A stretch of 64,000 nt of DNA from Myxococcales bacterium (GTDB lineage Bacteria > Myxococcota_A > UBA9042): NCBI GenBank assembly GCA_037441385.1, contig JBBISH010000004.1:1-64000 (forward strand). The letters run 5' to 3'. Below, in pieces: positions 24,001 through 27,000 of this stretch; the first letter of the stretch is position 1; every line of letters begins with the position of its first letter. Made by a program: the position numbers.

Positions 24001-27000
24001 AGCTCGATCTGTACCTGCAAGCGCAGAAGGCCTTTGGCGGTCCCGTGTTGCATGCCATGGGCAATCACGAGTGCACGGGCTATACCGCTTCGAACTGCGG
24101 CGAGGGCCTGAGCGACGGCGTCACGGGCCTGTACGTGGCCTATCTGGACAAGATGGTCAAGCAGCCGCTGGGCCTCAAGCGCCCGTTCTTCTCGTATTGG
24201 GTGCACGGCAAGACCGGCACCTGGACCGCCAAGTTCGTGGTGGTCGCGCCCAACGCTTGGACCAAGCAGCAGGCCGCCTGGCTAGAGGCCGAGCTGAGCA
24301 AGCCCACCACCTATACCTTTGTGCTCCGCCACGAGCCGAGCTACTCGACCACCGCGCCGGGGCTGCTGCCCAGCCAGGCCATCGTGGGCAAGCACCCGCT
24401 GACCATGCTGCTGACCGGCCACTCGCACACCTACAGCCGCGACCTGTACAAGCGCGAGTTGGTGGTGGGCAATGGCGGCGCTCCGCTGACCTCTGAAGTG
24501 CCCTACGGCTACGTGAGCGTGCGGCAACAGGCCAATGGTAATCTCAAGTTCGACGCCATCGACTACCAGAAGGGCGCCGCCTTCGACACGTTCACCGTCG
24601 ACGCGGCCGGTCAGGTGGTCAAGTAGGCGCCGCGGCGGGGCTCGAACCGCAGCCCACGGCGTGTCGCGGGTCGGCCAGGCAACGCTGTCGCCGGAGCCGA
24701 TGCGGCAAGAACACCAATCATACGCACCCCACCTGATTCGCGCCTGTACAGCTTTTCTGACCCGTTCTGCAACCGGCGAGAATCAGGCGGGGACCCCGGT
24801 TCGGGCCCGAAGAATTGCCGAAGTTTTCGAGCCGATTTGGACGGAAACCGTATCAGTGGGTCGCAAGCGGGCCCACCAGCGCCCTGCACTGGCGCGACCC
24901 GCCGCGACGTTTGCCCCCAGGACGGGGTGTCTGATCGGTGCCCCAGCGAGCGGATCAATTTGAGTTGTTCGCCGCGCCGCACCCGCCGCAATTGGAGCGG
25001 CGAGTCCCCAACGGGGCGAGCTTGCGACCCACCTGGCAGCGAGAGACCTGACCAGAGCATCCAAGTACTGAACGAGTGTGCAGTAATTGGTCAGGTCTCT
25101 AGGCGCAAGGACCTACCGGCAGCACACGGCGCAAGCGCGCGGACTCTCAAAGTTGTCGGTCTGGTAGGCGGCCCACGTGGCGCCGATGCCGCCGTTGCCC
25201 GAGCAATTGGTGAGCGCGGTCTTGTCCATGCACATGGTGGCGCCCTGCTGGCCCCACGACTGCCATTCCAGGGCCGAGGTGATGTAGCCGTCGACCATGA
25301 GGGTCCAGCCGCTGGGGCAGGCGTTGCTGCCGAACTTGGTGAAGCACTGGCCGGCCGGGCGCCCAGGGCCCTGGTCGGGTGCGCACACGGCGCACGGCAT
25401 GGCGCTGTTCTGGTAGTGCGAGCAAGTGTGACGATAGCTCCACTCCACGCCGGTCCCTTGGTCGTTGGCCAAGCCGCCTTCCAGGCAGATCACGTCGTTG
25501 GCGCGGCCCCAGGTCTGCCGCTCGACCATCAGGGCCGAAGCACCGGTCGACACTGCCGACCAGCCCGTGCCGCAAGTGCTGCCGCCCCAGTGGATGTAGG
25601 TCTGGCCGCCGGTGAACTGGGCGGGGGTGTAGCCGTTCAGGGTGCCGTCGACGATCAGGTTGCCCTTGACCTGGATCTTCTTGCTCGACAGCGTCTGGAT
25701 GTTGACTGACCAGGTGAAGGTGCCGTCGAAGCCGCCCGAACCGCCGCCGGCCTTGACATCCTTGACGGTGATCGACCACGCGCCTTTGATGTTCTTGCCC
25801 ACCCAATCGCCGTTCATGTCGCCCGAGACGAGCGGCGTGTCCGTGTTGAAGTTGGTGACGAGCGAAGTGCCGGTCTTGCCGCCGTTGAACAGCACATAGG
25901 CGTTGGCCACGCCGGGGGCGTACAGCTCGACTTTGACCCCGGTGAGGTCCGAGTTGGCAATGTTCATGTTGATCCAGATCTTCTGGGCCAAACCGATGTC
26001 TGGGAAGGTCAGCGTGTCGGTCACGCCCGCGCCCAAGCCGTCGGGAATCTTGATGGTGCCGGTGCCCGCCTGCGAGTCGACAAACTGGTTGTTGATCAGG
26101 CCGTTGCTGACCTCGTCGATCCCATCGGCGGGCATATCGCCTTCGACCAGGTCCTGACACGCCAGCGAGCCGTCCGCGTTGTAGCCCTTCATGTACAGGC
26201 CGGTGCCGCACAGCTTGCCCACAGTGGGGATGCCGGGCTTGTTCGCCAAGTCGGCGTAGTCGCCCGTGGTCGCCACCTTGGCCAAGACGGGCTTGTTGGC
26301 CAGATCGGCATAGTCGCCACTGCCCGCGACCTTGGCCAGCGAGGCTGCCTTGACGTAGGCCGAAAGGTCCGTGGTTTTCGCGTAGGCCCCCAGATCAGAG
26401 GTCTTGGCGTAGGCGGCAAGGTCCGCGATCTTGGCGTAGGCGGCCAGGTCGGTGGCCTTGGCGTAGGCCGTCAGGTCGGTCGCCTTGGCGTAGGCCGCCA
26501 AATCCGTGGTCTTGGCATAGGGTTGCAGCACTGCGGCGTCGAGCGCATCGGCCTTGACACAGCCCGAGCACTCCAACGCTTCGGCCACCGCGGCGCGCAG
26601 GGCAAAGAAGGTGGCACCGGCCGGACGGCGCGGCAATTCCGGGTCCGTGGCCACTTGCACGCCGATCCACGCGTTCTGCAGGCTCAGGGCCGCTGGCGAC
26701 AACGGCGTCTTGCTGCCCAACATAATCGAGAATTCGCCGCTTTTGGCCGTGACCGCCAACGGACCTTCCGTCCAGACTGGGCTGCCGCCCACCTCGCTGG
26801 AGTAGATCGACACCGTCATGGCGTACGTCCCATCCGCCGCAGGCCCCCCGCCAGCGGAATAGAGCAGGCCTTCGATCGGCGTGGAAAGGGGCACGGCCGC
26901 CTGGGCCGGGGCCGCGGCGAGCGCGGCTCCCCCAGCCAACGCAAGCGCCGCCAGCCAGTTCGACATCCCGTGTACGCGCATGGTTCCTCCCAGATTTTAC

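Follow-up and report, generated by a model that had tools for sequence, protein, structure and literature searches.

The gene g00431 is located on the minus strand at positions 25113..26981 of the window, i.e. the whole analyzed stretch of 64,000 nucleotides from Myxococcales bacterium (contig JBBISH010000004.1, assembly GCA_037441385.1). The ORF list and translation revealed a single reading frame of 622 aa with its stop codon at 25113-25115 and a third-position GC of 0.88, which fits a coding frame; the preliminary description had placed a gene here correctly, but the strand was corrected to minus. Searches with the whole protein gave no match in NCBIfam and only sub-threshold matches to P_proprotein and EF_HD in Pfam. 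The host is an uncultured soil or groundwater bacterium; DNA of g00431 is present in runs of one subsurface-metagenome study.

The protein consists of a series of parts, all encoded on the minus strand. A signal peptide was recognized by eye in the translation (residues 1-29, 26895..26981; it ends with AQA, followed by AVP). Behind it lie an N-terminal beta-sandwich domain (residues 30-135, 26577..26894), assigned by pLDDT and hhalign as a base of the MAT type, and a CSGC motif (residues 138-141, 26559..26570) with the invariant C138 and C141. Tandem Repeats Finder detected nonapeptide repeats YAKxxDLxx at 26349..26521 (6.4 copies of 27 nt), followed by two 18-residue units LAKVAxSGDYADLANKPV at 26234..26338 (period 54, 1.9 copies). 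The next parts are a two-cysteine loop mini-domain GKxCGTGLxxKGxxADGSxxC (residues 255-276, 26154..26219; C258 and C275 invariant, pLDDT about 85) and a P-domain-like jelly roll (residues 295-432, 25686..26099), which was delimited by Pfam matches in paralogs, pLDDT, and Foldseek. The neck (residues 433-445, SKKIQVKGNLIVD, 25647..25685) is the final conserved stretch in the alignment of 26 members, and identity collapses right behind it. The head (residues 446-622, 25116..25646) contains 12 cysteines and two subdomains, at about 25371-25604 and 25116-25355, and resembles the NC1 domain of collagen IV.

The 31-gene family proposed earlier was borne out: a tblastn search of the 221 contigs with residues 1-445 of g00431 yielded 31 matches including g00431 itself. 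At least 400 query residues were aligned by blastp in 26 of the 31, again with g00431 included, and the other 25 were 36.7-73.4% identical, in line with the range of 37-73% given before. Full-length members comprise 584-877 aa. Tandem sets exist, as had been noted, on contigs C107 (three genes) and C55 (two genes). All 31 members have a Sec-like signal peptide at the N-terminus, which agrees with the common signal peptide claimed previously and was judged here by eye, without a predictor; inspection by eye revealed no lipobox or C-terminal sorting motif in the 31 sequences. A MAFFT alignment of the 26 members showed 31 invariant columns, all of them within residues 45-420 and none behind, so that their restriction to the shared module holds as well. 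The reading as one conserved secreted stalk with exchangeable C-terminal heads is supported by these data; the family exists and is modular.

Two further members were found in the window by tblastn, both on the minus strand. The member at 40981..43029 is 47% identical to g00431 over query residues 2-444 and carries a fibrinogen-related, intelectin-type head (FReD group); Pfam detected P_proprotein with 27.7 bits, DUF4215, and Fibrinogen_C. The member at 46687..48441 is 41% identical over query residues 20-440 and has a short stalk and a singleton head. Its start may be located further upstream, since the frame is open to 48630. On the upstream side the frame runs on for 141 codons, and the GC3-based ORF call covers 46687-48630. 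The genes beside the three window copies have housekeeping roles without relation to the family and give no clue to its function; the 17 ORFs scanned there contained no phage or injection-system family.

A model of the N-module was built from an alignment of 131 sequences and reached a mean pLDDT of 80. The previous model, described as poor outside two domains, had a mean of 51. The N-terminal beta-sandwich showed pLDDT values >90 over residues 31-125 and the jelly roll >95, as compared to about 50-70 for the repeat region (residues 130-250) modeled as a monomer and 50-60 for the YAK repeats. C138 and C141 of the CSGC motif as well as C258 and C275 are invariant in the 26 paralogs and also in the 131 family sequences. 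The repeats had been given a length of 11 residues; their period is 27 nt, i.e. 9 residues, and the number of YAK motif-like units varies from 0 to 8 among the paralogs. The two-cysteine loop unit recurs many times in the members L008, L029, and L120. PHROG 30808 matched the YAK repeats (E 1.4e-9) and PHROG 17509 the 18-residue units (E 3.1e-7), both being PHROG families of unknown function. Hence, the likeness of the repeats to tail fibres is now based on a tool result.

The stalk contains a P-domain fold. Foldseek with the g00431 jelly roll found protease P-domains as best matches (3wqb at 1.8e-5, 3hjr, furin, and Kex2; 33 at E≤1e-3). Pfam listed P_proprotein in 12 of the 31 members and scored nine of them at or above the 21-bit cut-off, with g00431 itself below it at 13.9 bits. 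The P-domain-like jelly roll of the preliminary description was thus correct, while its statement that no Pfam family covers the module was too strong. Likewise, the motif IQ[VIL]KG[ND]L[IL]VDG, said to end the module, occurs in its exact form in 5/31 members only; a looser KK[IV]x[VIL]xGxL is aligned in 26/26. Against the PDB, an N-module profile found only 3sik/3sz6 ('conserved domain protein', E 0.016-0.024), and a search of the ESM Atlas with the N-domain returned unnamed clusters only.

A relation of the N-domain became visible when profiles were compared with each other. The N-domain of one Bdellovibrio bacteriovorus ORF found 21 paralogs in that genome, with ORFs of 522-1389 aa and the domain directly behind the signal peptide in each case. 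When the 31 N-domains were aligned with these 21 by hhalign, a probability of 96.4% was obtained (E 1.4e-9, 115 columns); after removal of the signal peptides it was 95.5% (E 1.6e-8) and in a reversed control 0.2% (E 0.32). The link rests on this profile-profile comparison, because an HMM of the N-domain, when searched directly against five Bdellovibrio genomes, yielded only two weak matches (4.4e-4 and 6.9e-4). In the sections of Caulton et al. 2024 (PMC10769870) used here, a MAT superfamily with 21 members in Bdellovibrio is described, whose prey-gripping fibres are displayed on the surface; the 21 ORFs found here come from another strain and were equated with the published MATs on the basis of their number and architecture rather than by locus tag. 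The aligned profiles show that the N-domain is homologous to that of the Bdellovibrio fibres, and the family is thereby placed within the published MAT superfamily as one of its branches. Supplementary Table 3 of the same paper lists one MAT-like protein of 559 aa with a beta-helix tip from a 'Myxococcales bacterium', whereas 'fibrinogen' and 'collagen' have 0 occurrences in one text supplementary file. Pfam (E≤0.01) detected no Peptidase_S74 in the 31 proteins, and within the MAT scheme the family members would be of the NS74 kind. The preliminary description contained neither the MAT link nor an identity for the g00431 head.

The g00431 head was then compared with known domains. Pfam found no family on it at E≤10. 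Eight of its 12 cysteines are invariant across 13 heads, and subdomains 1 and 2 cross-match between P0001 and the relative P0125 (E 7e-6 and 0.001). PDB searches with head profiles retrieved collagen IV NC1 in 8/10 matches with a 10-head profile and in 9/9 matches with a 13-head profile; the best matches were fused constructs of three NC1 domains (8e-7 and 8.2e-7), the best single chains reaching 0.03-0.04. Collagen IV NC1 was also the top structural match of the head model, where Foldseek gave nothing at E≤1e-3 against the PDB. In the nearest named ESM Atlas cluster (score 0.76), to be taken as a lead only, 17% of the members have Pfam C4, and C4 was listed for one of 10 aligned relatives at E 0.11. 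Arginine deiminase, matched by phmmer against the PDB over about 70 residues (E 0.06 with the whole protein, 0.008 with the head), was dropped as a chance match since the profile searches failed to recover it.

Among 1.84 billion representatives, 19 head relatives were found at E≤1e-3, the head itself included. The relative P0125 shares both the N-domain of g00431 (37% identity, E 1e-17) and its head (E 1e-13), and has a Pfam Collagen triple helix (7.2e-9) directly before the head in place of the stalk. Unannotated tandem repeats of the head domain occur in a snail and a picozoan. g00431 itself has no Gly-X-Y region and its head no HSQ motif, the equivalent places reading YIHWGG and CFTKFGS. 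The HSQ motif is located near the start of each C4 repeat, according to the part of PMC5395295 used, and spongins also lack it according to excerpts from papers including PMC5395295. The head type accounts for 1/26 full-length heads of the genome and was found in 5/37 genomes of the taxonomic family, the own genome included.

Additionally, three copies of the head were modeled together. ipSAE values of 0.88, 0.87, and 0.88 were obtained as compared to 0.00 for the best control; the runs agreed in at least 88% of contacts with a partner pLDDT of at least 77, and subdomain 2 of one copy contacted subdomain 1 of the next. The ipSAE mark was reached by 20/30 proteins solved as pairs and by 1/23 solved as single chains, a calibration which is only roughly valid here because an own alignment and three copies were used. 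The score may also reflect the memory of the model for NC1 trimers. The head is thus predicted by the models to form a homotrimer, a closed ring of three chains, and the models likewise suggest a remote relation to collagen IV NC1.

The distribution of the family is narrow: the full stalk is restricted to one GTDB family and one genome of a second. All 17 genomes sampled from the taxonomic family contained the module, for which up to 14 matches were listed in a single genome, and another search gave up to 73 stalk matches per genome; these matches do not equal copy numbers.

Identity along the proteins breaks sharply. In nine pairs, windowed identity was about 50-96% up to column 450 but dropped to mostly 0-35% in the blocks that follow directly, and two pairs with a common head type kept somewhat higher identity in places. 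The heads comprise 149-433 aa. Grouping of the 26 full-length members by BLAST (E≤1e-5, at least 60 aa) gave 12 groups with eight singletons; the many kinds of heads reported earlier are thus confirmed, with 12 and 8 under our own thresholds instead of 14 groups and nine singletons. A quick tree of the stalks united L014, L015, and L016 with an SH-aLRT of 100, and this clade bears three head types; by BLAST, the L016 head falls into one group with the heads of L019-L021, and the stalks of these three form a separate clade with a support of 100. FReD heads require at least two changes on starred branches of the same quick tree. The sharp identity break and the disagreement of stalk tree and head type, the latter seen in the quick tree only, support the view that heads have been exchanged.

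Fibrinogen/intelectin-type heads are found in nine paralogs, g00431 not being among them, and there are 11 other head groups. The FReD-group profile matched XEEL (1.7e-18), human intelectin-1 (9.7e-18), lamprey serum lectin (9.1e-17), and ficolin-2 (1.7e-11) over profile positions 50-237; Pfam Fibrinogen_C detects no more than about 50 residues at the start of the intelectin-like domain. COLFI had been regarded as an extra domain of some of these heads. Its matches lie on or just before the Fibrinogen_C stretch, in about the first 50-60 head residues, and since both cover the same stretch COLFI does not represent a separate domain. F5_F8_type_C and Kelch domains are present as stated, but their carriers L027 and L030 share only about the first 250 and 150 residues, respectively, of the 440-residue module and are partial members. 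The head of L001 matched phrog_15727 ('virion structural protein') at 1.8e-39. Head profiles of L003/L004/L017 and of L016/L019-21/L002 gave nothing convincing against the PDB (congerin at E 0.18 or weaker and LigA at E 0.011, respectively), and that of L013/L015 zero matches. The heads of these three groups are putatively C1q-like or lectin-like. The heads of L009 and L010 may resemble the C-terminal domain of Cthrc1. Cthrc1 itself is treated in parts of PMC7058181.

Taken together, g00431 probably encodes a Sec-exported and likely trimeric fibre of the MAT kind with an NC1-like head, one of a set whose exchanged heads would serve as a binding repertoire. After removal of the signal peptide, the N-terminal beta-sandwich would keep the protein at or near the surface of the producer; the discussion of PMC10769870, in the part used here, proposes binding of a surface element by the N-terminal domain. 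The stalk, i.e. the 9-residue YAK repeats, the two 18-residue units, the disulfide loop, and the P-domain, would space the head from the cell, with a number of YAK repeats that varies among the copies. The C-terminal head would nucleate the trimer and bind the target, in g00431 as a closed ring of three chains and remote kin of NC1. About 26 full copies with homologous stalks would have had their heads swapped by recombination just behind the neck, and this exchange would create a repertoire of binding specificities. The inferred roles are retention at the surface and attachment to prey, to other cells, or to glycans.

The proteins may also be released, because no cell-anchoring signal was seen. 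They would then act as soluble secreted lectin oligomers like ficolins and collectins, agglutinating or coating cells or particles, with N-domains that bundle the molecules instead of anchoring them. Besides the missing lipobox and sorting motif in the 31 sequences, the relatives of intelectins and ficolins among the heads fit such a role, and a stalk with a C-terminal lectin head is the layout of animal defence collagens, in P0125 even with a collagen stalk. We nevertheless regard this as unlikely, as the homologous N-domain belongs to fibres which PMC10769870, in the part used, describes as displayed on the Bdellovibrio surface. It is even less likely, and in our opinion quite improbable, that the NC1-like heads join end to end to form an extracellular mesh rather than recognizing foreign targets. 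The head does model as a trimer, and in collagen IV two NC1 trimers associate head to head to form a hexamer (PMC13098435, PMC6527180, in the portions used), but an NC1-like head is found in only 1/26 full-length heads and 5/37 genomes of the family, and the remaining heads are for the most part lectin-like. The PHROG matches of the repeats and of the L001 head (phrog_15727, 1.8e-39) would fit tail fibres of prophages, tailocins, or contractile injection systems. Such fibres, being assembled in the cytoplasm, are not known to carry signal peptides, whereas 31/31 members have one; with housekeeping genes in the 17 neighbour ORFs of the three window copies and the module in 17/17 sampled genomes, we consider this origin extremely unlikely.

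For the g00431 head itself, the resemblance to NC1 could be due to convergence or chance among small cystine-rich beta domains, the head then being a separate fold family of some bacteria, molluscs, and protists. This explanation appears rather doubtful to us: three different kinds of methods agree on NC1 alone (PDB profiles with 8/10 and 9/9 matches, the top structure, and the language-model cluster), and the tandem plan, the C-terminal CxxC of each half, the 12 cysteines, the predicted ring of three chains, and the collagen helix of P0125 argue against it as well. That the NC1 knob has true bacterial homologues, which serve as trimerising heads on surface fibres, is a serious though still tentative proposal. 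One bacterial protein at least, P0125, combines a collagen triple helix with an NC1-like double domain behind it. In the excerpts of the literature used, this knob is treated as an invention of animals and their nearest unicellular kin. If the homology is true, the module would be older than animals or would have been transferred between bacteria and eukaryotes, and the relation would bear on how a central component of basement membranes originated. The protein of Ministeria described as 'collagen IV-like' would then have to be re-examined, because in its N-terminal part it is similar to proteins of bacteria (bioRxiv 10.1101/2021.10.08.463732, in part).

The fibre reading would carry the MAT principle beyond Bdellovibrio into an entire family of uncultured bacteria. 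Many fibres per genome on one stalk would provide a naturally occurring library of binding heads, and also a candidate route for the recognition of prey, partners, or surfaces in this lineage. Many of these heads are familiar mainly from the extracellular matrix and the innate immunity of animals, i.e. the intelectin/ficolin types and the NC1-like knob of g00431.

Several known systems resemble parts of these proteins. The P-domain of proprotein convertases (PF01483; furin, Kex2, Aeromonas ASP) shares the jelly-roll fold, with the Pfam cut-off reached by 9/31 members. Unlike in subtilisin-like proprotein convertases, the Peptidase S8 catalytic domain is absent from all 31 proteins (Pfam); some relatives therefore carry a misleading source annotation, 'subtilisin-like proprotein convertase family protein'. 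Modularity is likewise a trait of phage tail fibres, whose proximal part is conserved and whose distal tips are exchanged, and the repeats match PHROG 30808 and 17509; the present proteins differ from them in their signal peptides, in chromosomal genes scattered among housekeeping genes, and in being fixed across a bacterial family. Intelectins/X-type lectins and ficolin-type FReDs correspond to the heads of the nine paralogs by a profile match over the globular domain. These heads, however, are bacterial and reside on a MAT-type stalk, and their sugar binding is putative.

The NC1 domain of collagen IV, with its two Pfam C4 repeats (1LI1, 1M3D, 5NAZ, 6MPX, 6WKU), is the sole PDB family found by the head profile. 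Differences are a head length of about 177 as compared to about 229 residues, the absence of Pfam C4 and HSQ from the head, the non-collagen stalk before the g00431 head, and its bacterial and rare occurrence. Both have tandem homologous subdomains, each with a terminal CxxC, and a C-terminal place, and the g00431 head further agrees in the predicted ring of three chains and in its position behind a collagen triple helix in the relative P0125. Like the g00431 head, NC1 has 12 cysteines.

MAT fibres of Bdellovibrio have long beta-helices where the g00431 family has a stalk of 9-residue YAK repeats and a P-domain, and the g00431 family proteins are shorter (584-877 aa in full-length members). 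Sequence similarity between both is visible only from profile to profile, and heads of animal extracellular-matrix types (intelectin/FReD, NC1-like) are absent from the supplement text of PMC10769870 used here. Both systems share a signal peptide followed by a homologous beta-rich N-terminal domain (about 130 aa in MAT), a two-cysteine loop behind this base domain as judged by eye, and a multi-copy repertoire of 21 in Bdellovibrio versus 31 here; in both, conservation at one end goes with diversified C-terminal tips of lectin or TNF kinds.

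The gene g00431 (25113-26981, minus strand) consists of a single open frame of 622 codons plus stop; its GC3 is 0.88, and the GC content of the whole genome is 66.9%. By inspection, the protein starts with a typical Sec signal (…AAPAQA/AVP). Pfam yielded only sub-threshold matches and NCBIfam zero matches. A tblastn search of the whole 6.63-Mb, 221-contig assembly with residues 1-445 revealed 31 places including g00431 itself, confirming the family size given in the preliminary description. After extension of each place to its ORF, 26 of the 31 aligned by blastp over ≥400 query residues, again including g00431; the other 25 full-length members show 36.7-73.4% identity to it. 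In the remaining five, similarity to g00431 is confined to the first 120-250 residues, beyond which they diverge into a Kelch propeller, a discoidin domain, arrays of two-cysteine mini-domains or glycine-rich sequence. All 31 members have a signal-peptide-like start (by inspection). Three lie in the window, and the tandem sets on contigs C107 and C55 are indeed present. In NCBI, close homologues appear under names of the type 'MAG: … Deltaproteobacteria bacterium'.

Two alignments, of 26 and 131 sequences, and a structure model (mean pLDDT 80) define the anatomy of the shared module. The signal peptide precedes a beta-sandwich that spans residues 30-135 (pLDDT above 90) and an invariant CSGC motif. 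Next come between 0 and 8 YAKxxDLxx units, depending on the member, and a pair of 18-residue units with SGxYxDLxxxP. A two-cysteine loop then leads to a jelly roll, which covers residues 295-432 (pLDDT above 95), and the module closes with a neck, KKIQxKGxLxVD. The repeat, previously taken to comprise 11 residues, has a period of 27 nt and thus 9 residues, and the neck motif exactly as first written, IQ[VIL]KG[ND]L[IL]VDG, occurs in only 5 of the 31 members. The jelly roll is a P-domain: P_proprotein reached or exceeded the Pfam cut-off in 9 of 31 members, and the best Foldseek matches of its model were the P-domains of Aeromonas ASP, furin and Kex2 (33 matches at E≤1e-3). A protease domain was absent from all 31 members scanned; hence, the public annotation of some homologues (P0089, P0098, P0108, P0112 and P0120) as 'subtilisin-like proprotein convertase family protein' may mislead. 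Long arrays of a ~25-residue two-cysteine mini-domain (…CxxGxxVxGxxxxGxxxC…), a unit present once in the family stalk, were observed in L008 and L029 of the same genome and in L120, an ORF of another genome (G005:C81), in which an NC1-like head closes the array.

The full-length alignment has 31 invariant columns, all of them within residues 45-420. In nine pairs compared by windows, identities of about 50-96% gave way to values mostly between 0 and 35% in the blocks immediately past column 450. The heads of the 26 full members range from 149 to 433 aa and form 12 BLAST groups, eight of them singletons. On a quick maximum-likelihood tree, the stalks of members L014, L015 and L016 form one clade (support 100) with three head types among them; the L016 head falls into one group with the heads of the tandem genes on C107, the stalks of which constitute a separate clade (support 100). 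The nine fibrinogen-type heads require four changes on the stalk tree, at least two on strongly supported branches. The break in identity and the conflict between stalk clades and head types therefore indicate that heads have moved between stalks.

A profile of the nine fibrinogen-type heads matched XEEL (1.7e-18), human intelectin-1 (9.7e-18), lamprey serum lectin (9.1e-17), ficolins over the whole domain (1.7e-11), angiopoietins and tenascins. Matches to collagen C-propeptides were limited to profile positions 38-87. Pfam COLFI and Fibrinogen_C fall on or beside the same ~50-60 residues; the COLFI domain reported earlier for some of these heads is therefore not a separate one. The C-terminal head part (residues 507-680) of L001, a family member at 40981-43029 (minus strand), matches phrog_15727 'virion structural protein' (1.8e-39), hence this head type occurs in phages.

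The head of g00431 (residues 446-622) is a singleton within its own genome. With its 12 cysteines, it divides into two homologous halves that both terminate in CxxC; Pfam found nothing on it. Relatives are rare: among 1.84 billion representatives, phmmer gave 19 proteins at E≤1e-3, counting the g00431 product, and at E≤1e-10 only the latter and one other. The head type is found in 5 of 37 genomes of the taxonomic family, counting the window's own. Fibre-like bacterial relatives include L118, L120, L121, P0134, P0138 and P0125. Tandem arrays of 2-6 alternating A/B cysteine-rich units related to the head occur in P0122-P0124, P0126, P0130 and P0133, and Pfam recognized no family in these units at E≤0.01; P0130 (KAG5690627.1, from the snail Batillaria attramentaria) and P0133 (Picozoa) are eukaryotic. 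The closest full relative, L118 (G043:C586, ORF of ~675 aa, 65% head identity), carries 'AGAIGTDHIAVGAVTAEKLANGAIVAEKV'-type repeats in place of the YAK repeats, like the Bdellovibrio fibre L094, and an extra segment ahead of the head.

Profiles of 10 and 13 such heads were searched against all 177,635 distinct PDB sequences. NC1, the C-terminal knob of collagen IV, accounted for 8 of 10 and 9 of 9 matches, respectively, with fused three-NC1 constructs at 8e-7 and 8.2e-7 and single NC1 chains at 0.03-0.9. The AlphaFold2 model of the head (pLDDT 68.7, pTM 0.71) gave no Foldseek match at E≤1e-3. The nearest named ESM Atlas cluster contains Pfam C4 in 17% of its members (score 0.76), which serves as a lead only. 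We interpret the head as a probable remote homologue of NC1; it is not a Pfam C4 member. Modelled in three copies, it is predicted to form a ring, each chain placing its subdomain 2 against subdomain 1 of the following one (scores 0.88, 0.87 and 0.88; best control 0.00; ≥88% of contacts shared; pLDDT ≥77). Of proteins solved as pairs, 20 of 30 reach the score mark applied, against 1 of 23 solved as single chains, counts that are only a rough guide here; the passing score may stem from resemblance to NC1 trimers of known structure. P0125 (381 aa, public metagenome assemblies) combines a signal peptide, the family N-domain (E 1e-17), the CSGC motif and the same NC1-like double head (E 1e-13) with an intervening collagen Gly-X-Y helix (Pfam Collagen 7.2e-9). 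Its collagen-then-NC1 order is that of collagen IV, in a miniature bacterial layout. NC1 has been reported from animals and one filasterean protein, the N-terminal part of which is said to resemble bacterial proteins (bioRxiv 10.1101/2021.10.08.463732; PMC5395295); among the best matches of a literature search, which is not proof of absence, no bacterial NC1 domain was described.

The 424-position stalk profile matched 30 of 31 related genomes at E≤1e-10, including 10/10 other genomes of the genus (13-52 matches each, which are not copy numbers) and 18/18 of the GTDB family. In an even phylum sample at E≤1e-40 it was found in 19 of 201 genomes, namely the window's own, 17/17 others of the host's GTDB family and the sole genome of a second family; the other 182 were unmatched. 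Around the three window copies, 17 ORFs were scanned. Their functions are unrelated to the family (topoisomerase, histidine biosynthesis, pseudouridine synthase, Usp and EutC with a BMC shell protein, among others), with no secretion, chaperone or phage gene among them. The BMC shell-protein gene adjoins that of EutC, the ethanolamine ammonia-lyase light chain (28194-29885, minus strand), directly downstream of an MBL-fold hydrolase and two genes from g00431. Another eukaryote-flavoured, secreted-looking protein of 1212 aa is encoded at 11763-15401 (plus strand), with Dictyostelium-type Dicty_CTDC cysteine repeats (2.6e-14) and a PQQ_2/BamB-like propeller.

The N-domain was compared with the mosaic adhesive trimers (MATs) of Bdellovibrio bacteriovorus, whose N-terminal domain is described as probably located at the predator's surface and as having no structural homologue in the PDB (PMC10769870). 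Direct HMM search of five Bdellovibrio genomes, reached via a 16S primer, gave only two weak matches (4.4e-4 and 6.9e-4), both at the N-terminus of long fibre-like ORFs. One of these N-domains led to 21 paralogs in its genome, ORFs of 522-1389 aa in which it follows a signal peptide. Profile-profile comparison of the 31 family N-domains with these 21 gave 96.4% probability (E 1.4e-9, 115 columns), and 95.5% (E 1.6e-8) when signal peptides were omitted; the reversed Bdellovibrio target gave 0.2% (E 0.32). On the basis of this match, we place the g00431 family within the MAT superfamily, as a branch that has diverged.

Following Sec export, the N-domain would, by analogy to MATs, hold the fibre at the cell surface, with the stalk as a presumed spacer between head and cell. 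The head would trimerise the fibre, as modelled, and may bind a putative target; recombination just behind the neck could reshuffle heads into a repertoire. Surface display, stalk trimerisation and head binding specificities are predictions.

A single MAT-like protein from a 'Myxococcales bacterium', with a beta-helix tip, is already entered in Supplementary Table 3 of PMC10769870, so that the occurrence of such proteins in this group is in itself no novelty. Neither 'fibrinogen' nor 'collagen' appears as a word in one supplementary file of that paper. The present analysis adds a test of homology to the Bdellovibrio proteins, the distribution across the phylum, a corrected anatomy and, for the g00431 head, the probable NC1-like identity and a trimer model. 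Compared with the Bdellovibrio MATs, the g00431 family is devoid of the S74 chaperone-protease tips and possesses a different stalk.
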